In this document: piece by piece, positions 2,857 to 31,641 of the stretch
Numbering within the stretch: position 1 is the stretch's first letter
Layout: every line of letters starts with the position of its first letter
NCBI GenBank assembly: GCA_048885535.1
Contig: JBHLLO010000011.1
Coordinates: forward strand, 9,483 to 69,524
Origin: Candidatus Hermodarchaeota archaeon
GTDB lineage: Archaea > Asgardarchaeota > Lokiarchaeia > Sigyniarchaeales > SOKP01
Direction: 5' to 3'
Length of the DNA: 60,042 nt
Notes under the pieces: model-generated
What the model saw: the letters and a program-made list of their open reading frames with translations, nothing else
Told to the model about the DNA's origin: nothing
Databases searched by the model: none
Position numbers and translations under genes: made by a program

Positions 2857-4818
2857 CTAATTGCCTTCTGAATGAGTCTTCTTTTTCTTTGGAATTTTCA
2901 ATGATACAATTGCCAAGATAATACTTAGTACTACGAAAAAAATACCTGTAAACAATTGAGGATTAACAGAGATAAAAGTTGGTTCAATTACATAAAGTAT
3001 TGAACTAAGATAAAAGACGATTACGAAAATTATAATGAGAATTGGCCATTTAGTAATTTTCATCCTTTCAGCTACTTGTTCTTCTAGAAGTTGTTTAAAC
3101 TTGACTTTTGAAAAAACCTTATCAAAAATACCCTTTATCACTCCTATTAAAGCTAAAGAAATAATCCCTAAATTAAAAATCAATATAAAGTAGTCAAAGT
3201 AAAAATAAAGAAAATAGGCAATAGAAACAAGTAAGAAATACATAAGATAAATGATTAAAAAGATAATTATCCATTTAAACATTTTATTTTTAGGTGAAAT
3301 CTCATCAAGAACATGACTAGCCCTTCTCTTACCAAAAAATCGTATCCTTAATAAAAAAATTAACATCAAGAAAATAAATACAAAAGGTAAAGTTGCAAGA
3401 ATTGTCAGGAATAAATCCATAAACCTAGGATCAAGAACATAAACCAATATAGGAGTGATTGTAGCTATTATTTGAAGAATACTCATAATTAATAACTTAG
3501 CCTTAGCTTGGTCACGATTTATGATAGGGAGTCCTGCGGTTATACTTTTCCCAGTATTCTCTATATTCAATATATTGTATACAATTACTCCAGAAAGAAC
3601 AGGACTAAATCCTACAATTACCAACCAATTATAAAATAAATCACCCCCCAACAACGCTCCTTGTCCATAACTGATATTGAAAAAAATTATAAACACAAAT
3701 GACATAATAGTAGGCATTAAGAAAGACATAAATGTCTGTATATTTCTGGAAGCAATAAGTAAATCTTTCCGAATAAAAGCTTTGATGGGAGAAACTTTGT
3801 GAATTCTTACTGTTAGCTCCTTTTCTGGTTGAATATATTTATTGAACTTATATTTTAACGATAGGATATTGTTAATCGAATTCATCGCTTTCTTAAAGAA
3901 GAAATAAAGTAAGATTAAGTATAAACTCATACCAAATAGAGGACTGAGCCAAATATTAATCGTCATCTCTGGAGCATTGATAAAAAAGCAAATTAAATAG
4001 GTTGGGCTAAAAGGAAAAGGAATAAAACTCAGAATAAGGTTATAAAGTGGGGAATGATATAAATTAGCAGAAGTTACAATAATCGAAATTAATGAATTTA
4101 AACCCATTTGAATAGCAAAGATACTGCCAAAGATTATTATTGAATAACTGAAAACATTTAGTATTTGTAGTGACAATGCCTTTCTTACCTTTTTAGTCTG
4201 TAATTTTATCACATTAGCTAGTTTTTCTCCAAGAATAATTAGAATCGAAATTGAAAACATCACATTGATGACTGAACAACCTAATGAAATAAGAAAAGCA
4301 AGATAATTTTGGGTAACAAAGTACAACATTATCGGAAAAGTAAGGATATTTGTTAATATTGGTATATCAAAATTATGTATAATTGTAAGTAATGTTACTC
4401 TTTTTAATTCCTTTCGAGACAATGGGAGTGTTTTAAACCATTCAAAAATTTCACCAGACATTATATTCATCAAATTGAATACTCCCATTAAAAAAAAATC
4501 GAAAAACTGTAGTAGGAAGTAGGTTTGGAGAACAAAACTTTGAATAAATACAATAATTTGAGGATCAGCTCCAGCTTCAGTGAGTGAATTAGTGATACCT
4601 AAAAATGCTATTAAGGGAAATATTGGCAAAATTACAAAGATTATACTATTAATGATTTTATATGAAAGAAATTTTAACTTGAGAGAACGCTTTTTCTTTC
4701 TATATTTTGCAAAAATTTGATCTATTGCTTCACTCTTCAATTGTAGTTGTTCTTCTATGAGAATTTCATAAGAAATATTTTTAGCTATGGAATATATGCT
4801 ATATTTGTTGTTTCTCAT
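2857..4818 (-). CDS. Large polytopic membrane protein, putative ABC-2-type permease
   Basis: 653 aa with many TM segments in two repeated halves; 'KTLPLS' and 'FIRKDLLIASRN' resemble ABC-2 permease halves. Confidence 0.55.
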   Translation of the reverse strand: MRNNKYSIYSIAKNISYEILIEEQLQLKSEAIDQIFAKYRKKKRSLKLKFLSYKIINSIIFVILPIFPLIAFLGITNSLTEAGADPQIIVFIQSFVLQTYFLLQFFDFFLMGVFNLMNIMSGEIFEWFKTLPLSRKELKRVTLLTIIHNFDIPILTNILTFPIMLYFVTQNYLAFLISLGCSVINVMFSISILIILGEKLANVIKLQTKKVRKALSLQILNVFSYSIIIFGSIFAIQMGLNSLISIIVTSANLYHSPLYNLILSFIPFPFSPTYLICFFINAPEMTINIWLSPLFGMSLYLILLYFFFKKAMNSINNILSLKYKFNKYIQPEKELTVRIHKVSPIKAFIRKDLLIASRNIQTFMSFLMPTIMSFVFIIFFNISYGQGALLGGDLFYNWLVIVGFSPVLSGVIVYNILNIENTGKSITAGLPIINRDQAKAKLLIMSILQIIATITPILVYVLDPRFMDLFLTILATLPFVFIFLMLIFLLRIRFFGKRRASHVLDEISPKNKMFKWIIIFLIIYLMYFLLVSIAYFLYFYFDYFILIFNLGIISLALIGVIKGIFDKVFSKVKFKQLLEEQVAERMKITKWPILIIIFVIVFYLSSILYVIEPTFISVNPQLFTGIFFVVLSIILAIVSLKIPKKKKTHSEGN

Positions 4819-20599: not shown

Positions 20600-21622
20600 T
20601 TAATCTGAAAAGATTAATCTTTGTTTAAACAGTGTTTGATTAGAACTAGCATCAATAATATACAAGAAATATTCATGACTAGTAGAATAAATCGGTGAAA
20701 CAATAATTAATTCCTCTTCAGGAACCCACTTTTCAATCTTCTCTCGTAACACTTCACTCTCAAAAAATTCTTGAATAGAAATAACTTTTGCACAGATATT
20801 GTTAAATAAATTTTTTGATTGGTTCTTGATTAAAATTTCTACTTCTTGAGTATCTTTGTCCATATCTGTTCTTAAAATTCTAAAATTTTTTTCAAATCCA
20901 TATAACTCATTTGTTAAAACTTTTGATTCAAATAATTTAACATTCGAAAAACCTAAATCATCTTCTTCACTAAAAATGTAATTTATTGGAACTCCTTTTA
21001 ATGATAAATATGATATGGCCTTCTGAAGTTTGAAAGTTGTAGAATCCGTTCTTTTAATAACAGATTGGAAATATTGTGAACAGGTGTTTTTGATTAGAAC
21101 TTTTATTCGTTTTTTAATAGCTTCTCCTATATTGATTAATGACTTTATTGTTGGAGTTTTTATTGCTTGTGTTTTAGCTACTTCGGCATCTATTAAATGA
21201 GATATCTTTGATGAAAAATGTTTTATTATTCGTTCAGCCATTTTTTTTAGAAGAGTTCCTCCAAAGATATCCATATCGATTGGTAGAGCTAAGATCAACA
21301 CAAGAGTTTCGAAAAGATCTTCTTCAGAACCAGATCGCCGTTTTTCTCTTTTAGATGATATTAAAAACTTCTTTGCGAAATATATTTTTTCTTTATATTC
21401 CAAATCCATTCGATCTGGAGATGTTTGATCACTTATATCAAGGAACCAAATTGAGTGAATTCTAATCAAGCGCATAATATCAAGATTATCTTTTAGAGAT
21501 TCATCAGGAGTGATAAGAAGAGGCACTGGACCAAACTCTTCGTCGAAGTAGAGTAAAAAGATTTCACATAATTGCTCAGGTTCTATAACTTCTTTCTGCT
21601 TTTTTTTTGAAAAGTTATCCAT
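20600..21622 (-). CDS. Hypothetical protein with N-terminal uDENN/longin-like domain
   Basis: 'IFLLYFDEEFGPVPL' start motif; beta-rich C-terminal domain; 30 bp downstream of the hydrogenase large subunit on the same strand. Confidence 0.55.
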   Translation of the reverse strand: MDNFSKKKQKEVIEPEQLCEIFLLYFDEEFGPVPLLITPDESLKDNLDIMRLIRIHSIWFLDISDQTSPDRMDLEYKEKIYFAKKFLISSKREKRRSGSEEDLFETLVLILALPIDMDIFGGTLLKKMAERIIKHFSSKISHLIDAEVAKTQAIKTPTIKSLINIGEAIKKRIKVLIKNTCSQYFQSVIKRTDSTTFKLQKAISYLSLKGVPINYIFSEEDDLGFSNVKLFESKVLTNELYGFEKNFRILRTDMDKDTQEVEILIKNQSKNLFNNICAKVISIQEFFESEVLREKIEKWVPEEELIIVSPIYSTSHEYFLYIIDASSNQTLFKQRLIFSD

Positions 21623-21652: not shown

Positions 21653-22963
21653 TTAATGTGTAGCACAAGAGATGCATGGATCAAAAGCTCTTATCAGAAT
21701 TTGAACCTTTCTATTAACTGATTCTAGATCTTCTTTTTTATATAACTCTTGAGCATAATTTTTAATTTTTTCATTTAATAGAGGGAAATTTATTTCAGTT
21801 GCGATAAAAAGTTTAACATAATCAATATTATTAGACTTATTCATATGATAATGGTGTATAAGGGTACCACGTGGTGCCTCAACCATCCCAACACCGTTTT
21901 GATGTACAATAGAGTTAAGAGAGGGAAGTGGTTCTTTATTTTCCAAACTATGTTGATTTAATATTTCTAAGCTCGCCTCTATTTCCTTAAAAATTTCAAT
22001 TAATTGTAATACATTCATAAATAATATGCTTTCTCTCCAGTTTTTTTCAAAATTATCTATAATAGAATTTTTTCTATTTCCAAAGTCATTTTCGACTAAA
22101 TGGAATCTAGCAATTGGTCCAGTTAATATATTTTTAAAATCTTTTGATCTAAATTTAATTCCAAAAAGATTACAATCTTTATCAAAATAATTCAAATAAC
22201 CGTTTACTTCAAACTCTAATTTCTTCATATTAAATGGCATTATATTTAGAGTTCCGTTATATCGATCATATTTTCCCTTGTTGGACATTCCAAAATATGA
22301 TGGATTCTGTAAATTAAATTCATTTGGGGGAATTTTAGTAGCAAAGAGTTCTACAAATTTATCAATAATATATTGTATATTAAAAATAGATTTCTGTAAG
22401 TATTTCTGGGCAAGTAAAATATTCTTTTTCGAAGGGTTATAAATGATTCCACCTGGAATAGGTGTAATTAAATGAAGCATTCTTCCTCCAAAAATATTAT
22501 TTAATTCTGAACCTGCTTTAATTAAATCATAAACACTAGTGGTTAATTGAGAATCAAATCTAATTAGTTGGTAAGGATCTATCCCTTTTTTATAAATCTG
22601 AAAAATTTCTAAAAAATCAGGTAATGATTGAAAGAAAAAATGCATTATATGAGATTTAATTAATTCAGCTACCATCAATATTCTTCGAAGTAGGGTTGTT
22701 TGGAAACTAGGCTGGATTTCATAAATCTTTTCAATGGCTTTACAACTAGCAAATGTTTGAGAAGCATGACATAAACCACAAATTCTTGAAACGATTCTAG
22801 GAATATCATTTAACTTTTTGCCTACTAAAATGTTTTCAAATCCTCTAAATGCAGAAATTTCAAATTCTACATGATCTATTTTTTCATTTTGAATGAAATA
22901 ATTTACTTTTCCATGTCCTTCGACTCTCGAACATACATTTATTACCTTTTGCATTACTTTCAC
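21653..22963 (-). CDS. mvhA: [NiFe]-hydrogenase large subunit, group 3 (MvhA-like), with sensor-type features
   Basis: 'SRVEGHG', L1 'RICGLCHASQ', 'VEAPRGTLIHHY' and L2 'DPCISCATH*'. Confidence 0.88.
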   Translation of the reverse strand: MKVMQKVINVCSRVEGHGKVNYFIQNEKIDHVEFEISAFRGFENILVGKKLNDIPRIVSRICGLCHASQTFASCKAIEKIYEIQPSFQTTLLRRILMVAELIKSHIMHFFFQSLPDFLEIFQIYKKGIDPYQLIRFDSQLTTSVYDLIKAGSELNNIFGGRMLHLITPIPGGIIYNPSKKNILLAQKYLQKSIFNIQYIIDKFVELFATKIPPNEFNLQNPSYFGMSNKGKYDRYNGTLNIMPFNMKKLEFEVNGYLNYFDKDCNLFGIKFRSKDFKNILTGPIARFHLVENDFGNRKNSIIDNFEKNWRESILFMNVLQLIEIFKEIEASLEILNQHSLENKEPLPSLNSIVHQNGVGMVEAPRGTLIHHYHMNKSNNIDYVKLFIATEINFPLLNEKIKNYAQELYKKEDLESVNRKVQILIRAFDPCISCATH

Positions 22964-23712
22964 CTTTTTAATATTGGTTTTGAAAACCTATAAAAGATAC
23001 CAGAATATCTCTTAAGGTTATTAGAAAGATGAACTAAACTTAAGAAATTAACAAGGTTTGAAGTAAATTGCTTTGAGGGAGAACCTAAACAACCCTCACA
23101 TGGCATTCCTAATTCTATACATTTATTATCGCACCCTTCTCTAGTAATTGGCCCTAAACATAAAATTTCATTATTTAAAAAACATTCCCGCTTATTTGAA
23201 GTAATTTCAGAATTAGTAGGACTAAGTTTTGATATTTGAGAATTAAAATTAAAATGCTTCTCGTCTCTCAGTGGACAAGAACTACACATATTTTTTTCTG
23301 AGAGCGTTATATTCTTATTTTCAATAAGCCTCATTAAAGAATTTCCTAATAAGTTTGTTGGAGGAGGACATCCAGGGATAATATTATTAATCTCGATGTA
23401 TTTTGAAATTGGATTCGAATTTTTCCTTTTTGATAAACCCAGAATACCCCCAAATGCAGCACAAGTACCTAAAGCATATACTTTTCTTGAATGCTTTCGA
23501 ATTTCCTTCAATACTTCTATTTGATTTACTTCTGAAATGCATCCCTCTATTAATGCAATATCTGAATCTGAAATTTCATTTTCACTTGAGATAAACGGAA
23601 AAAATGTAATTTCAGTCCTTTCTAAAAATTGAGGAAACATATCTAAAGACATAATAGAAGAAATACAACCACTACATGAAGTTAATGATGCTACAATAAA
23701 TCTAAGTTTGAT
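22960..23712 (-). CDS. mvhG: [NiFe]-hydrogenase small subunit (MvhG-like); probable ATC start
   Basis: The frame extends upstream of the ORF-track Met (23652) to include 'SLTSCSGC'; then 'IEG', 'GTCAAFGG', 'PGCPP', 'CSSC', 'CLGPIT' and 'PCEGC'. Confidence 0.85.
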   Translation of the reverse strand: MKLRFIVASLTSCSGCISSIMSLDMFPQFLERTEITFFPFISSENEISDSDIALIEGCISEVNQIEVLKEIRKHSRKVYALGTCAAFGGILGLSKRKNSNPISKYIEINNIIPGCPPPTNLLGNSLMRLIENKNITLSEKNMCSSCPLRDEKHFNFNSQISKLSPTNSEITSNKRECFLNNEILCLGPITREGCDNKCIELGMPCEGCLGSPSKQFTSNLVNFLSLVHLSNNLKRYSGIFYRFSKPILKR

Positions 23713-26248
23713 TAGTGACCCCCTCCCTTAAAATATTATAAAATTTGTTAGCAATTTCTGCAAACTTAGGACCTTCTACCGCGTTTAAATTTTTAAATAT
23801 AATTCGGTTGCGATATTTTGGGCTTAAGATTTTTTTAAGAATTTGTATTTTTTTTTGTGCTTTTTCAATTCCGTCAATATATCTACAAGCATCTTTTCTA
23901 CATCCTATAACCATTACACCATCAAATCCTACCTCAAAAGATTTAAATATAAATTCAGTATCTAATCTTCCTGTGCATGGGATGCGAATAACAAAAATAT
24001 TAGGCTGATATAGCTCCTTCTTTAGCCCAGCGTCATCAACAGCTGCATATCCACAAGAATAACAACAGAAAGCAACAATTTTAGGATTTTTATTAAATTT
24101 TGAATAAATTTCAATTGTTTTCAATATTTTTTCTGATGTATCTATATTCATTTCAATTGCGTTTGTAGAACATACACTTGCACATGTTCCACATCCTTTA
24201 CATTTAAACTTATCTACGCTAATCTTATTAGATTCTATAGTTATCGCATTATAAGGACACACTCTTTCACATAAGCCACATAATCCGCATTTTTCTTCAT
24301 TAATTCCAATACTTGTGAATTCAGTTAATAAATAATCATTTGATAATAGAGAGATGATTTTTAATGCTACTACGTTTGTCGTAGACATAGTAGATTGATA
24401 ATTTAGCGGTCCAAATATTGTTCCAATGCCATAAATCCCAGATGCTAAAGTCTCTTCACTCATAAATCCATTATCATTTAAAGTAAAATCCATGAATTTT
24501 CTTAATATTTTAAGATCTTTATTTGGAATATACTTAAGATTTAAAACTATCAAATCACTTGGAAATTCAATGTTATCTGCGATCACATAATTAACGTTAT
24601 CATTAGATTGAATTGTAATCTTATTAGCATATAGAAATCTTGGATTGGTAGATCTTAGAAGAATTTCATCCTTATTTTTTAATTTACTCAAATCATAAAA
24701 AACATTGACTTCACACTCAGGGCTTCTTATTTTAATATCCTCAATATATTTTTGTGCTAAGATTTCAGAGTATTCAGTAAGATATTTGGAAGGACCAACT
24801 TCTTGAATTATTGAAATAGAGTTTATAGGTATTTTATCGGATAATCTTAATAATTTTCCTTCAGTGATACCATCAGAAGATAATATTCTTTCGAATTCAG
24901 CCGAAGTAATAATACTTTTTTGAGGATTATAAAGATATTTTTCTAAATTCGTATATAAATCCGCACCAATCGCAATGACTTTAACTCCAACCTTAATACG
25001 AATCTTTTCAAGTTTTTGATGTAAGTCAATTGCTTTATTAATACAAACACGCTCACATATCATACAGTTTAAGCAATTATTAATATCCTCTTCATCAATT
25101 ATAGGAGCATATGGATAAGAATTTTGGAAGGGAATGTATATTATTTTTCGGTTTGATAAACCAAATTCATATTGATTTTTCTTTTCCTTACCGCATACAC
25201 TAATGCATTGTTTACAACCTGTGCACTTTTTTTCATCTACATAACGAGGTTTCTTGATTAAATCTAATGTAAAATTACCTACTTCTCCAGAAACCATTTC
25301 TATTTCAGTATTGGTCAAAATATCAATATTTTTCTCTTTAGCAATCTCACCAATTAATTCAGAAATAAAACATATAGAGCAGTCCCCCATATTAGAAATT
25401 CGATGCCATCTAGCTACTTTTCCTCCTAATGTTGGTGATTTCTCTATAAGATATACTTTTATTCCTGCACGTGAGAGATTTAGAGCTAACGTCATCCCTG
25501 CAATGCCACCTCCTAATATCGCACAGCTTTTTTCAACATCAACAGTTTTTATTTTGACTTCTTTTTGAAGTTTTACACGTTCAACTGCAGCTTCAATTAA
25601 TAAGCTCGCCTTCTTTAATGCTAATAATGGATCAAATTGCTGAGTGTTTGAATGATGAACCCAACAACATTGCTCTCTAATATTGGCTATTTCTATATTA
25701 GCACTATCAATCACAGGTTTAAAGATTCGTTCAAAAATGTGTTGATGTGTTTTGGGGGAACAAGCCGCTATAACCACTTTGTTTAAGAAATTTTCTTTTG
25801 TCCAATTTGTAATTTTATTCAAGTTCTTTTCTTGACATAAATTATCAAAAACTTTTACAGAAACTACATTATCTAATTTTTCAATCTGATTTTCTAATAC
25901 ATTAATATTTATTATGTTGGATATTTCAGTATTACAATTACATAGAATCACTCCAATTCGACTAATTTCACTCCCCTTTTTGTCTAAGTATTCTATTTCT
26001 TCCCCTGCTAAAATACGTCTGCTTACATTCATAATTCTTAAAATTCTTTTGCCATCTTCCGTCAAAAAGTAAGATTTTTTATCTTTATTTATTAAGGATC
26101 CTAATTTCTTTAAATGAAAATTTAATTGCCCGGTTTGGGCGATCCCCATTTTTTCCATTAAATCTGTGTATGAGATGAATCCTTCTTTTTCTAGGAGTAA
26201 TAAGATTTTTCTTCGAAAAGGATGAGATAATATGTTATAGATATCTAT
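23702..26248 (-). CDS. hdrA: Fusion of ArsR-like winged-helix domain, heterodisulfide reductase subunit A-like flavoprotein and MvhD; probable ATA start
   Basis: wHTH 'ILSHPFRRKILLLL...GQLNFHLKKL...YFLTEDG'; HdrA 'CNC', 'AACSP', 'NIREQC', 'GGGIAG', 'DCSIC', four CxxCxxCxxxC motifs, 'EFERIL'; MvhD 'AFCCYSCGY', 'PCTGR', 'GCRKDACRY'. Confidence 0.88.
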   Translation of the reverse strand: MDIYNILSHPFRRKILLLLEKEGFISYTDLMEKMGIAQTGQLNFHLKKLGSLINKDKKSYFLTEDGKRILRIMNVSRRILAGEEIEYLDKKGSEISRIGVILCNCNTEISNIININVLENQIEKLDNVVSVKVFDNLCQEKNLNKITNWTKENFLNKVVIAACSPKTHQHIFERIFKPVIDSANIEIANIREQCCWVHHSNTQQFDPLLALKKASLLIEAAVERVKLQKEVKIKTVDVEKSCAILGGGIAGMTLALNLSRAGIKVYLIEKSPTLGGKVARWHRISNMGDCSICFISELIGEIAKEKNIDILTNTEIEMVSGEVGNFTLDLIKKPRYVDEKKCTGCKQCISVCGKEKKNQYEFGLSNRKIIYIPFQNSYPYAPIIDEEDINNCLNCMICERVCINKAIDLHQKLEKIRIKVGVKVIAIGADLYTNLEKYLYNPQKSIITSAEFERILSSDGITEGKLLRLSDKIPINSISIIQEVGPSKYLTEYSEILAQKYIEDIKIRSPECEVNVFYDLSKLKNKDEILLRSTNPRFLYANKITIQSNDNVNYVIADNIEFPSDLIVLNLKYIPNKDLKILRKFMDFTLNDNGFMSEETLASGIYGIGTIFGPLNYQSTMSTTNVVALKIISLLSNDYLLTEFTSIGINEEKCGLCGLCERVCPYNAITIESNKISVDKFKCKGCGTCASVCSTNAIEMNIDTSEKILKTIEIYSKFNKNPKIVAFCCYSCGYAAVDDAGLKKELYQPNIFVIRIPCTGRLDTEFIFKSFEVGFDGVMVIGCRKDACRYIDGIEKAQKKIQILKKILSPKYRNRIIFKNLNAVEGPKFAEIANKFYNILREGVTNQT

Positions 26249-26454
26249 TTTTAAATCCCCTCTATTGATTATTGTTATTGTTATTTTTGAAATTTGACAA
26301 ATTTATTTCTCTTCATGATAATGAAGTTATTAGATTATTTAAACTTTGCCGGATCCTGATCATTAGGATTTTCTTTTTTATAAATAAGAGTGTCGCTATC
26401 AGTCGGAGAAATGTCGATTTTGCATATAACAAAAAAAGTTTTATTAGATAAATT

Positions 26455-26500
26455 TCTGACTAAAAAAATTATCAAACTATAACAAAATTTTCTTGTCAAA
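26455..26500. promoter_or_regulatory. Putative tandem operator (two ~22-bp TTTGAY-N10-RTCAAA-type sites, 24-bp period) in the divergent promoter
   Basis: TCTGACTAAAAAAATTATCAAA-CT-ATAACAAAATTTTCTTGTCAAA; 35/46 ungapped identities with 31295-31340. Confidence 0.55.
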
Positions 26501-26583
26501 CTCTTTTTATTCTAACAATTTGATTATTATCTTAGATTAATAATAATCTTTTAATAAAGGTTTATGAAGAGGTGTTTTGTAAA

Positions 26584-27201
26584 ATGGAAGTTTTGGAATT
26601 AAAGCCTATAAAAAATAAAAGAATTGTTGCCTATATTACCTCAAAAGAAAATGCTAAGTACTTCCAAAACAAAGACACTGAAAAATTAAGGAAATTTTTG
26701 AAAAAGAACACCGTCGATTTTGTGACGGTAGATTTCCAAGTTAACATGAAGGAATTCAATAAAACATCATTTGCACTAACATTAAATGAACTTAAGATCC
26801 CTTATTGTCAAGTTGATATTCCAGACTACGCAATGGGATATCTTTATCAAGAAATTATCGAAAAACAGCAGTTACAAACAGAATTGTTTGAAGAATATGA
26901 AAATATGAGCGAGAAAGAATCATATAAAGGACTTAGTTTAAAAAATTGGATTGATATGCTAGGTGAGGAAATACAAGAAAAAGAAATATTTCTAAGTTTA
27001 AAACTAAGACCTCAGTGGATTGTTAAAAAAATGTTAGATCTAATATCAGACTACGAAAAAGATGTCATAGTATTTGTTCATTTTGTTCAAGAGGACATAT
27101 GTGAAGATATTTGTCCAGAGATTACAAACAATTTGAGGGAATTAGGCGTAAAAGTTGTCTCTTATAATAAAAAACATACTATCCAAAATATAATATTTTA
27201 A
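26584..27201 (+). CDS. Hypothetical protein, paralogue of 27221-27952 (divergent TraB/ChaN-like fold with helical hairpin)
   Basis: GAGGTG SD before ATG 26584; shares 'EVLELKP', 'IP(Y/F)xxxDIxxxAxxYL' and 'KxRxxW' with the next gene. Confidence 0.65.
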   Translation: MEVLELKPIKNKRIVAYITSKENAKYFQNKDTEKLRKFLKKNTVDFVTVDFQVNMKEFNKTSFALTLNELKIPYCQVDIPDYAMGYLYQEIIEKQQLQTELFEEYENMSEKESYKGLSLKNWIDMLGEEIQEKEIFLSLKLRPQWIVKKMLDLISDYEKDVIVFVHFVQEDICEDICPEITNNLRELGVKVVSYNKKHTIQNIIF

Positions 27202-27220
27202 AAAAAGGAGGAGATAATAA

Positions 27221-27952
27221 TTGCCAGAAGTGTTAGAATTAAAGCCTTTAAAAGAAAAATATTTAAAGTTAATAATGGTTGAAAGTGAATTTCCAATTGA
27301 TTGGTGGTTCGAAGTCCCCGATGAAATTAAAGAGGATCTTGTATGGAACCTCCATTTAATTTCAAAAGAATACCTTCAATTGATTGATTCATTAATTGAA
27401 AAATATAAACCTGATTTTGCGGTAGAAGAAAAGCCAAATTTTTGGAATAATGCAAATCACACAAAGGATCCATTAAAAAACTTATTTGAAAAAAAAAAAA
27501 TTCCATTCAAACGCGCAGATATTTCCGAAAATGCCGAATTGTATCTTTCATCAGCCCTAGATGGACATAGATCAGCAATTAAAAATCTTGAGTCGAGAAT
27601 TAGAGAATTAATCCAAAAACAAGGGAAAATTCCTGAAAATGATGACTTATTTCAAAAGTTAATATTATGGAAAGAGTATTTACAGAAAGATTATGATACT
27701 CAAGAAGATGAAGTAAGGTATAAAGTAAGAGAAGCGTGGATGATGATGAATATTCTTAACCTTGCTAAGGATGTACAAGGGAAGAAATTGAAAGGGATGT
27801 TCATTTGCGATCTTCGCCACTTTAATGGGATTGAAAAACTGTCAGAAGATTTGGGTATAGAAATAGAACAAGTGAAGATAAAAAGAACTATTAAAACTGA
27901 GGACCTCGAAAAGGATCTTGAAAAAGATGTAGAAATTGACATTTCTAAATAA
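27221..27952 (+). CDS. Hypothetical protein, divergent TraB/ChaN-like fold
   Basis: AGGAGGAG SD with TTG start; 'KYKPDFAVEE', 'REAWM' and 'FICDLRHFNGI' resemble TraB-type 'PDxVxVE', 'RdxxM' and 'VGxxHxxGI'. Confidence 0.6.
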   Translation: MPEVLELKPLKEKYLKLIMVESEFPIDWWFEVPDEIKEDLVWNLHLISKEYLQLIDSLIEKYKPDFAVEEKPNFWNNANHTKDPLKNLFEKKKIPFKRADISENAELYLSSALDGHRSAIKNLESRIRELIQKQGKIPENDDLFQKLILWKEYLQKDYDTQEDEVRYKVREAWMMMNILNLAKDVQGKKLKGMFICDLRHFNGIEKLSEDLGIEIEQVKIKRTIKTEDLEKDLEKDVEIDISK

Positions 27953-27971
27953 ATAAAAAGAGTTGATAAAA

Positions 27972-28958
27972 ATGGTTGAAAAAAGTGTAGAAAGTATTTT
28001 AGGAAAAAAATCTATTATCGAATTAACTCCAATTATTATAAAGAAACAAGATACTTCCGATAAAATTTGTTATTTTTTTGATACAGATGATAATGCATCT
28101 CCATTTGATATTAATATGGCTTATGATGCTGGTTTCGATATAGTTATACCTCTAAATAAAATGAAAGCAGAGTATGTTCCCAAATTAGTTCAAGATGCTA
28201 TTTTTTCTAGGAAACCCGGTGCTCCTACAGCCTTTTTTATTGGTGGTTCAGATGTCAAAGAGGGTGAAAAAATTGCTAAAGCTGTGAAAAGTTCATTAGT
28301 ACCACCTTTTGAATGTCCCATCATTATTGACCCTAGAGGATCTCATACTACAGCATCAGCGGTTATAGCCATGACGATGGATATTGCAAATAAAAAGCAT
28401 GGTATTAAAGATTTAAAAAGTAAGAAAGTTGTAATCTTTGGTGCGGGTCCTGTTGGCAGAATTGCTGCAATTATAGCCGCAAAAATAGGCTGCAAGGTCT
28501 ACATCGTTGAGACTTGGGAGAAATCTAATGAGAATTTTGTGAATGCTTTAGTAAAGGAACTTAATGCTGAAGCTGGAACCGAAGGAGAAAAGATTATTGG
28601 ATTATTTGCACCCGAACTTGAACAGAGGTTTGAAATAGCTAAAGATGCGCTTATTATATGGTCCCTTGCTGCAGCAGGAGTTGAAATATTAAGTGTTGAA
28701 TGGATGCAAAAATTGAAGGGTAAAAAAATTGTTGTTGATATTAATCTTGTGCCACCATATGGTATTGAGGGCATTAAACCAAAACATAAAAATGACGAAA
28801 TCTATCCTGGAATATTCTGTATTGGGGCACTCGCATTAGGAGCTTTAAAGGCTAATACTGAAAGTCAGATCTTAAAAGAAGCCTCAAAAACAAAAGGATT
28901 ACAGATATTTGATTATAATTATGCATTTGAAGTTGCGTCTGGATTGCTTAAAAAGTAA
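27972..28958 (+). CDS. mtdB: NAD(P)-dependent methylene-tetrahydromethanopterin dehydrogenase-like protein (MtdA/MtdB family)
   Basis: 'SPFDINMAYDAGFD', 'LVQDAIFSR', 'FIGGSD', 'PPF', 'DPRGSHTTASA', Rossmann 'GAGPVG' and 'DINLVPPYGIEG'. Confidence 0.8.
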   Translation: MVEKSVESILGKKSIIELTPIIIKKQDTSDKICYFFDTDDNASPFDINMAYDAGFDIVIPLNKMKAEYVPKLVQDAIFSRKPGAPTAFFIGGSDVKEGEKIAKAVKSSLVPPFECPIIIDPRGSHTTASAVIAMTMDIANKKHGIKDLKSKKVVIFGAGPVGRIAAIIAAKIGCKVYIVETWEKSNENFVNALVKELNAEAGTEGEKIIGLFAPELEQRFEIAKDALIIWSLAAAGVEILSVEWMQKLKGKKIVVDINLVPPYGIEGIKPKHKNDEIYPGIFCIGALALGALKANTESQILKEASKTKGLQIFDYNYAFEVASGLLKK

Positions 28959-31294: not shown

Positions 31295-31340
31295 TTTGAT
31301 AAAAAAATTTATCAAACCTATAAAAAATCTTCTTATCAAA
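31295..31340. promoter_or_regulatory. Putative tandem operator including a palindrome with perfect 9-bp arms
   Basis: TTTGATAAA-AAAA-TTTATCAAA (31295-31316), followed 24 bp later by a second TTATCAAA half-site; matches 26455-26500. Confidence 0.6.
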
Positions 31341-31413
31341 TTTTTTAAATTGAGAGATAATGGTTATTTACTTAGATAGAATAAAATTACTTTCTAAAAA
31401 GGATGTGGTTTTA

Positions 31414-31641
31414 ATGGAAATTGTTGTAAAAAGTTTGGAAAAAGTTGAACAAAAAATCGATAACTCATACAAACAATTTTTAATTGAATTTGCAGCTGGA
31501 TATCTTGAATTAGAATTTATCGAGAAACAAAAACAATTGAATGAATATATGAGAGCTTATGATGAATTAGAAGATAAGGAAGCATTTAATGCTGAATACC
31601 TAGCATCGCTAATTGAAGCTCTCAAATTAGAGCTTCAGTAA
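31414..31641 (+). CDS. Small helical protein homologous to the central hairpin of 26584-27201
   Basis: 'FAAGYLELEFIEKQKQLNEYMRAYDELEDKEA' aligns with 'YAMGYLYQEIIEKQQLQTELFEEYENMSEKES'; ATG 31414 preferred to 31360. Confidence 0.65.
   Translation: MEIVVKSLEKVEQKIDNSYKQFLIEFAAGYLELEFIEKQKQLNEYMRAYDELEDKEAFNAEYLASLIEALKLELQ

Follow-up and report, generated by a model that had tools for sequence, protein, structure and literature searches.

A winged-helix head on the HdrA-MvhD subunit of an Asgard hydrogenase operon: a candidate self-regulating redox enzyme

Why would the electron-carrying subunit of a hydrogenase complex begin with a domain of the kind that binds DNA? The question is raised by a 60,042-nucleotide (nt) stretch of Candidatus Hermodarchaeota archaeon DNA (GenBank assembly GCA_048885535.1, contig JBHLLO010000011.1, positions 9,483 to 69,524; hereafter the window), which is AT-rich (G+C 27-34%). 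On its minus strand a winged helix-turn-helix (wHTH) domain, a short linker, HdrA, and MvhD follow one another in a single gene. The original prediction, made from the letters of the window, held that a complete archaeal ArsR-like wHTH runs without a stop into HdrA-MvhD, that canonical HdrA has no such head, and that an HdrA homodimer would present two heads to a palindromic operator. We found that the fusion is very probably real and conserved, and that a rare palindrome recurs upstream of it in relatives.

A winged-helix head in frame with HdrA-MvhD

The gene and its parts, in coordinates of the window, are the following.

23702..26248, minus strand: whole gene, wHTH-linker-HdrA-MvhD, a single open frame of 848 codons plus stop, with relatives aligning to residues 1-848
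26033..26245, minus strand: wHTH domain, residues 2-72, recognition helix TGQLNFHLKKL (assigned from PF24038)
25961..26032, minus strand: linker, residues 73-96 (24 residues), conserved in sequence and of low model confidence
24110..25960, minus strand: HdrA part, residues 97-713, with an N-terminal cysteine domain, a flavin adenine dinucleotide (FAD) domain, an inserted ferredoxin domain, and a C-terminal ferredoxin domain (assigned from 8rvu and 5odc)
23729..24088, minus strand: MvhD (FlpD) domain, residues 721-840 (assigned from PF02662 and 5odc_D)

Minus-strand translation of 25800-26398 gives IDIYNILSHPFRRKILLLLEKEGFISYTDLMEKMGIAQTGQLNFHLKKLGSLINKDKKSYFLTEDGKRIL, identical to the peptide of the original prediction, which continues stop-free into RIGVILCNC and the remainder of an open reading frame (ORF) of 818 amino acids (aa) at 23702..26158. 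The head aligns with positions 3-76 of the 77-position Pfam profile PF24038 (DUF7347) with E 2e-12 and a score of 47.6 bits, where 27.6 is the cut-off, and it scored 48.1 bits in the genome-wide scan. Its weaker Pfam and NCBIfam matches are all helix-turn-helix families (HTH_20, HTH_24, HTH_5/ArsR, and ArsR/SmtB). A profile of 20 orthologous heads found as its best solved sequence 1y0u, a putative ArsR repressor of Archaeoglobus fulgidus (E 3.5e-4; profile positions 7-72), followed by MntR; 1y0u and the head share the HLK-L motif of the recognition helix. Scores for the ArsR/SmtB family itself stay below the cut-offs (HTH_5, PF01022, 15.8 versus 22; NF033788, 26.8 versus 55), and, unlike those repressors, the head has no identifiable metal-site motif and is never free-standing in this orthogroup. 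As far as the profiles tell, it is related to ArsR/SmtB at the superfamily level only.

The full-length AlphaFold model is mediocre, with a mean predicted local distance difference test (pLDDT) score of 64.5; residues 11-60 of the head reach 79-84. DSSP assigns to the head in this model a helix-helix-helix-hairpin topology (H10-22, H27-34, H39-52, E53-56, E59-62), and a homodimer prediction for residues 1-100 scored 0.41 (mark 0.42). Across 121 sequences the stretch T39-H45 of the recognition helix (T-G-Q-L-N-F-H) is invariant and the wing is strongly conserved too. Residues 1-75 are basic by hand count (13 K/R versus 8 D/E). The linker, of which residues 74-94 have pLDDT <50, contains positions that hardly vary in the same 121 sequences (conservation of G82 1.00, R78 0.97, and S93 0.98).

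Behind the linker, residues 91-713 match solved HdrA (8rvu, E 6.3e-100, chain residues 7-650 of 659; 5odc, E 2.8e-96) and residues 721-840 match MvhD (PF02662, 114.8 bits versus 22.3; 5odc_D, E 6.9e-22). Because the solved HdrA chains align from their residue 2-7 onward, head and linker precede an HdrA-MvhD that is itself complete. Among NCBIfam models HdrA2 gives the best match, and the scores lie below the curated equivalog cut-offs (NF040770, HdrA2, 558.7 versus 1100; NF041778, HdrA, 350.1 versus 1400). On all three points, the complete ArsR-like wHTH, its reading frame, and its absence from canonical HdrA, the original prediction is supported at the level of sequence.

Its homologues are numerous. 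With residues 1-115 as the query against proteins of 466-1484 aa, 160 clusters matched. Among the 120 listed, all 120 carry PF24038 and 117 also carry MvhD (hand reading); the three without MvhD are 474-679 aa long, and two of them are labelled partial by the source. Most clusters measure 839-855 aa, derive from metagenome-assembled genomes of Promethearchaeota, Lokiarchaeota, and Hod-, Hermod-, Thor-, and Helarchaeota, and usually bear the source name "hydrogenase iron-sulfur subunit". Twenty-one of 41 related genomes (the window's own counted) match from query residue 1-2. In a phylum sample of 400 Asgard genomes, residues 1-127 find a match at E<=1e-12 in 131, and about 119 have a match across the head-HdrA junction, mostly in open frames of ~840-900 aa (hand row count). 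Junction-spanning matches occur in families f1, f4, f5, f6, f19, f21, f28, and f31, and in none of the 14 genomes of family f2.

No free-standing close homologue of the head was found, as all 12 short matches are contig-end fragments of the fusion. A search of 1.84 billion representatives returned 981 head relatives at E<=1e-3; among the 150 listed, most are 90-450 aa long and one is source-named an ArsR family regulator. Pfam searches with ten head relatives identified three HdrA fusions (P0144 and P0178 with MvhD, P0137 partial), and the remaining seven are DUF7347 proteins, tandem heads or heads with other tails. Automated annotation names fragments "DUF7347 domain-containing" or "winged helix-turn-helix transcriptional regulator, partial".

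The junction was also compared with contigs from three samples (X1, X3, and X4), of which X1 is the possible source sample and X3 and X4 come from the same study as X1. All three reproduce 25827-26513 exactly, with 0 differing letters and 0 gaps. Related strains in these samples have substitutions and no indels in the coding part, the indels being confined to intergenic 26324-26552. Neither a stop nor a frameshift therefore separates the domains. The chance that a regulator gene was joined to hdrA by faulty assembly or sequencing is negligible, given the identical contigs and the recurrence of the same frame in ~119 genomes and 160 protein clusters.

Two further observations concern relatives of these domains in the same genome. 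A second DUF7347-headed enzyme of 643 aa (contig C12:34021-35952, plus strand; locus L047, 122..2053) has a wHTH domain (34.8 bits), an ATP-cone (24.7 bits; cut-off 25.8), and an anaerobic ribonucleotide-reductase NRDD region (59.2 bits). The joining of a wHTH to an enzyme may be a design that this organism has used more than once. Unfused HdrA paralogues on contigs C18, C28, and C50, and in many relatives, have 2-5 in-frame TGA codons within otherwise continuous matches. They are probably selenocysteine-containing HdrA, of the kind reported from Asgard archaea (PMC11227280).

Start codon and extent of the gene

Public gene calls in this 90% cluster are 818, 831, and 815 aa long and cut the head. 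The features that bear on its start are as follows.

26246..26248, minus strand: proposed start codon ATA, to which the relatives' ATG aligns
26257..26262, minus strand: purine-rich GAGGGG, resembling a ribosome-binding site (RBS), 8 nt 5' of ATA, with counterparts in relatives
26156..26158, minus strand: ATG of the public 818-aa call, Met31, within helix 2 of the wHTH (ORF list, cluster members)

The closest in-frame stop upstream is a TAA at about 26299-26301 (minus strand), and neither the ORF list nor the translation contains an ATG, GTG or TTG in frame between it and the Met at 26158. That Met31 is kept in 99% of the 121 homologues, and the public call that starts there splits the wHTH domain in half. 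As a start codon ATA is permitted by the genetic code of bacteria and archaea, but it is rare. The codon aligned with it is ATG in 14 related loci (L008-L020 and L024), which read M-D/E/K/N-I/V/L-Y-S..., and ATG also stands there in contig loose ends of related strains from the three samples. The closest relatives, L006 and L007 (~90% identity), have ATA too. In L006 a TAA stop immediately precedes the ATA, and there is therefore no coding further upstream in that locus. The RBS-like site is retained at the same place as AGAGGGG in L006 and AGAGGAG in L007, and the remaining relatives have purine-rich blocks.

The 30 codons from ATA to the annotated ATG differ between the window and L006 at 15 positions, 12 of them synonymous, and between the window and L007 at 12, eight of them synonymous (hand counts). 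Such mostly synonymous change is the expected mark of a translated, constrained sequence. The alternative is that an ATG-to-ATA change cost the gene its start, so that translation begins at Met31 and a crippled remnant of the head precedes plain HdrA-MvhD. The lack of a canonical start upstream and the lengths of the public calls would fit it, as would a distal palindrome (described below) that is degenerate too in this lineage. We consider it improbable in view of the synonymous changes and of the ATA and purine-rich site kept in three genomes ~10% apart in protein sequence; in addition, no RBS-like sequence was seen before Met31, and the indels of related strains end on the ATA side of the intergenic region. 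Translation most likely starts at ATA and yields an 848-aa product, and we are fairly confident that the head is translated in this genome. Gene callers miss it here because the probable start codon is the rare ATA.

Start codons are unusually variable in this orthogroup: they are mostly ATG, with a few TTG and GTG, and ATA in the three genomes. Locus L023 (G033:C1, a single-contig genome; start near locus position 3336, minus strand) has ACG right after a TAA stop, with GGAGG 8 nt upstream.

The intergenic region and its palindrome

Upstream of the fusion lies an intergenic region shared with a divergent operon, and the following features were assigned there.

26293..26321, minus strand: conserved block TTATCATGAAGAGAAATAAATTTGTCAAA with two TTRTCA half-sites, between TATA box and ribosome site (alignment)
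26336..26343, minus strand: TATA-box-like TTTAAATA, at a position conserved among relatives (alignment columns 343-350); a putative TATA box by its resemblance to the archaeal consensus
26456..26475, no strand given: distal palindrome, degenerate, TTGATAA-TTTTTT-TAGTCAG, with 2 mismatches to TTGAYAA-N6-TTRTCAA (pattern search)
26490..26500, minus strand: conserved block TTTGACAAGAA, an additional half-site, identical in 14 of 15 aligned upstream regions
26584..28958, plus strand: divergent operon, two paralogues of no known family followed by an Mtd-like dehydrogenase (27963..28958)

We aligned the 360 nt upstream of 15 same-genus genes and found conserved blocks amid a drifting AT-rich spacer. 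These are TTTGACAAGAA, TTGATAA-N6-T(T/A)RTCAA, ATGATC, a TATA-like TTTAWATA, and TTRTCATGAAGA...TTGTCAAA between the TATA and the ribosome site; the start of the first divergent gene is conserved in the relatives' upstream regions as well. Eleven same-genus loci have an exact distal palindrome at the corresponding alignment position. Of 31 relatives' loci (4.7-9 kb each), 14 have a single copy of the exact form TTGAYAA-N6-TTRTCAA, located in every case 78-309 nt 5' of the fusion start; these counts are not independent, since the palindrome-bearing loci are related. The stronger argument for the palindrome is its recurrence across families, in spacers that are no longer alignable: perfect 7-6-7 inverted repeats are present in family f21 (TTGACAA-N6-TTGTCAA) and in family f6 (TTGATAA-N6-TTATCAA).

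The palindrome is rare elsewhere. Genome-wide, the exact form has two sites in this 3.09-Mb genome (G000), one in G158 (before the fusion), two in G166 (one of them before the fusion), one in G217 (elsewhere), and none in G216 and G177. Among 41 relatives' loci, 22 have the 6-6-6 core within 365 nt upstream of the fusion, and whole genomes have 5-9 such sites per 3.1-4.7 Mb. Two of the seven core sites in G177 and two of the nine in G190 fall in the fusion promoter; reversed-pattern controls gave 0-3. In g12, g17, g21, and one g22 genome (G213), TGAYAA-N6-TTRTCA stands at the place equivalent to 26293..26321, ~86-129 nt before the start and just past the TATA-like box, where repressors in archaea would be placed to block recruitment of the polymerase. 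Of the palindromic operator that the original prediction expected, the association with the fusion gene was recovered in relatives; within this window the site itself is degenerate.

Several points weigh against a wHTH head that acts through this site. At the TATA-proximal place the window has half-sites only and no palindrome, and its distal site carries the two mismatches. The core palindrome is absent upstream in 19 of 41 relatives' loci, including four g22 loci with an abutting gene. The heptamer half-site TTGAYAA is not enriched in the window (58 versus 53.3 expected). Four other core sites in the genome (C13, C15, C45, and C76) are inside ORFs or ambiguous, and no regulon is visible. The palindrome could, moreover, be the site of any other regulator. 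With the head modelled alone (pLDDT 66), Foldseek against the PDB returned 1y0u as the best hit at E 0.13 and nothing at E<=0.001, and a wide VIA search returned a best Z of 4.0, nothing at Z>=5, and wHTH regulators at Z 2.6-3.3; because these fold searches are weak, the fold assignment rests on sequence profiles and predicted topology. The linker, finally, is conserved as strongly as the domain and could pack on the enzyme instead of being a free tether.

Winged-helix folds often mediate protein contacts, and part of this list would also suit a head that is a protein-protein or assembly module and does not bind DNA. Such a module might serve as a docking site for a partner or keep the mobile MvhD arm in place, and the palindrome would then belong to another regulator. 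Linker conservation of this degree is unusual for a passive tether, and the 19 loci without an upstream palindrome and the lack of a visible regulon point the same way. We regard this account as rather unlikely: the head's nearest relatives are small DUF7347/ArsR-like proteins typical of regulators, its recognition-helix motif is invariant and its net charge positive, and the rare palindrome co-occurs with the gene across families. The AlphaFold model, in turn, leaves the linker at low confidence and offers no docked pose.

Other patterns in the region were less informative. Palindromes with <=2 mismatches number 8 in the window versus 4.8 expected, which is not significant alone, and a bacterial promoter and terminator scan and a repeat finder added nothing on the intergenic region. 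The 11-mer TTTGACAAGAA was considered as a mark of a regulon and rejected, with 2 genomic copies versus 8 for its reversed control. In L037, L038, L044, L046, and L024 (g22 and G013), a same-strand gene whose C-terminus reads ...CNDFTNIYADISFGGLGS... closely precedes the fusion; these loci lack the palindrome, and the operon of that sub-lineage may be laid out differently. The only exact palindrome in the window is at 31296-31315, with a third half-site at 31333-31339. At a distance of 45-64 nt downstream of this palindrome is a 93-aa ORF (31360..31641, plus strand; no Pfam match), followed by an aminotransferase-sized gene. The palindrome, one of the two in the genome, may be a second site at which the same regulator acts.

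The hydrogenase complex and its possible function

Two hydrogenase genes follow the fusion in its operon.

22960..23652, minus strand: MvhG-like [NiFe] hydrogenase small subunit, next in the operon (PF01058, 59.9 bits; best solved match 5odc_E, MvhG, E 5.7e-29)
21653..22963, minus strand: MvhA-like [NiFe] hydrogenase large subunit (PF00374, 104.4 bits; best solved match 5odc_F, MvhA, E 4e-47, full length)

The order fusion-MvhG-MvhA is identical in one f21 locus and one f28 locus. These proteins have their counterparts in the methanogen MvhAGD-HdrABC complex (PDB 5ODC, 8RVU, and 9SW2) and in Methanosarcina HdrA2, itself an HdrA-MvhD fusion, with which the HdrA and MvhD parts align nearly full length; the best solved matches of both downstream genes are the methanogen MvhG and MvhA, and the cysteine pair of the dimer bridge is kept. 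The differences are the 96 extra residues of wHTH and linker, the loss of the cluster cysteines in the FAD domain, and the lack of hdrBC in the operon.

Among 36 orthologues the invariant cysteine sets are 103/105/138/163, 342-352, 392-402, 654-664, and 683-693, and the GGGIAG motif for FAD is present. The polypeptide that bears the head thus retains a redox module with its FAD motif and five cysteine sets, which correspond to the N-terminal cluster, both inserted-ferredoxin clusters, and both C-terminal ferredoxin clusters. The DCSIC pair (C290 and C293) is also invariant and aligns with the methanogen HdrA pair that contains the bridging Cys197. Between C402 and C512, where 8rvu has C...C-x3-CC, there is no cysteine in this protein and none in the 36-sequence consensus. 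The unfused HdrA-MvhD paralogue of the same genome (contig C4) retains LCVGSR...CSQVCC. Judging from these alignments, the four cysteines of the FAD-domain [4Fe-4S] cluster are lost in the fusion.

Passages of PMC9012536 and PMC13580544 describe this cluster of the thioredoxin-reductase domain (HA4) as the one that hands the high-potential electron to HdrBC, and describe Cys197 of the other protomer as completing the N-terminal cluster, so that HdrA is necessarily a dimer. Because the cluster that feeds HdrBC is lost, the complex is unlikely to be a heterodisulfide reductase. An HdrB-type CCG domain is found nowhere on this contig, with 27 matches elsewhere in the genome. Reduction by H2 through MvhAG and MvhD can still take place. 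The module more probably reports H2 or redox state, by way of reduced FAD and clusters, or its own assembly state, to the promoter.

The divergent operon encodes a dehydrogenase that matches Mpt_N and is Mtd-like; its first gene probably starts at ATG 26584 behind GAGGTG, and not at GTG 26572. The tandem paralogues in front of the dehydrogenase (26584-27201 and 27221-27952, plus strand) begin MEVLELKP and MPEVLELKP and belong to no Pfam family. On the other side of the hydrogenase genes, directly 3' of mvhA, a 340-aa ORF (20600-21622, minus strand) has no Pfam match above threshold and a weak match to RHH_9 (E 0.008); it has no counterpart at that position in the f21 and f28 loci.

The sequences themselves show the domain order in one frame, purifying selection on the head, its conservation across the phylum, the operon, the recurrent palindrome, and the loss of the cluster. 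The start at ATA, the dimer, its binding to DNA, the repression of transcription, and the kind of signal are predicted steps of the chain that we propose. An ATA-initiated protein of 848 aa would hold an ArsR-like head on a conserved linker of ~24 residues, and its HdrA-MvhD part would form a cytoplasmic [NiFe] hydrogenase complex with MvhG and MvhA. Dimerisation, by analogy with methanogen HdrA, would place two wHTH heads on each complex. The predicted targets of the heads are the 7-6-7 palindrome TTGAYAA-N6-TTRTCA(A/T) and half-sites related to it, within the promoter region that the operon of the complex shares with the divergent, Mtd-containing one. Through them the complex would repress or tune both operons in the manner of a repressor-type trigger enzyme. 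Its input could be the redox state of flavin and clusters, and hence H2 availability, or the state of assembly, that is, the amount of unassembled subunit. We lean, with no great assurance, towards this chain as a whole, a self-regulating trigger enzyme or hydrogen-redox sensor made of an ATA-started wHTH-HdrA-MvhD in a hydrogenase complex.

A more specific form of it is possible and, in our judgement, on the doubtful side. The complex would be a self-contained H2 sensor and transcription factor, and no longer a bifurcase that reduces heterodisulfide. The hydrogenase, MvhD, and the flavin of HdrA would be reduced by H2. With no exit cluster leading on to HdrBC, their redox state would be read out as a change of conformation that the conserved linker transmits to the two heads. 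These would then release or bind the palindrome and so switch two operons, that of the hydrogenase and the divergent C1 (Mtd) one.

Enzymes that carry DNA-binding domains are known from other systems, and the closest functional analogy to wHTH-HdrA-MvhD may be PutA. In Escherichia coli and Salmonella this proline dehydrogenase flavoenzyme has a ribbon-helix-helix head, regulates its own genes according to flavin redox state, and switches to the membrane. Cupriavidus necator HoxBC, with HoxJ and HoxA, is an H2-sensing [NiFe] hydrogenase that works with a separate histidine kinase and response regulator. The likeness lies in a hydrogenase that serves as sensor for hydrogen-metabolism genes; the difference is that here the DNA-binding domain would sit on the complex. 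An N-terminal wHTH on an active enzyme that regulates genes of its pathway is described for RbkR of archaea and BirA of bacteria (PMC5397151), and RbkR indicates that the wHTH-enzyme design exists in archaea. BirA and RbkR are small single-subunit metabolite sensors, whereas the wHTH here is carried by one of several subunits in a hydrogenase and iron-sulfur complex. No homology was found to PutA, BirA, RbkR or the Cupriavidus regulatory hydrogenase.

The wHTH-HdrA-MvhD fusion appears not to be in print. Full-text searches, which did not cover supplementary tables, found no description of a DNA-binding head on HdrA, and a full-text search found no paper on DUF7347. In PMC11237513, which deals with archaeal fusions, the passages on HdrA treat HdrA-HdrA-MvhD fusions only.

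What is particular to this window is the ATA start behind a truncated public call and the degenerate operator of its sub-lineage. Domain-based surveys will miss the head in this lineage because gene callers ignore ATA and truncate the protein. Asgard H2 metabolism is central to models of syntrophy and of the origin of the eukaryotic cell. Asgard reconstructions routinely read Mvh and Hdr genes as a bifurcating MvhADG-HdrABC, and they probably mis-assign this orthogroup because it has a head of the DNA-binding type and no cluster to feed HdrBC. Should the head bind the palindrome, a hydrogenase complex would act directly as a transcription factor. If the complex is in addition an H2 sensor, the archaeal lineage closest to eukaryotes would have a signalling path from H2 to a promoter within one complex.

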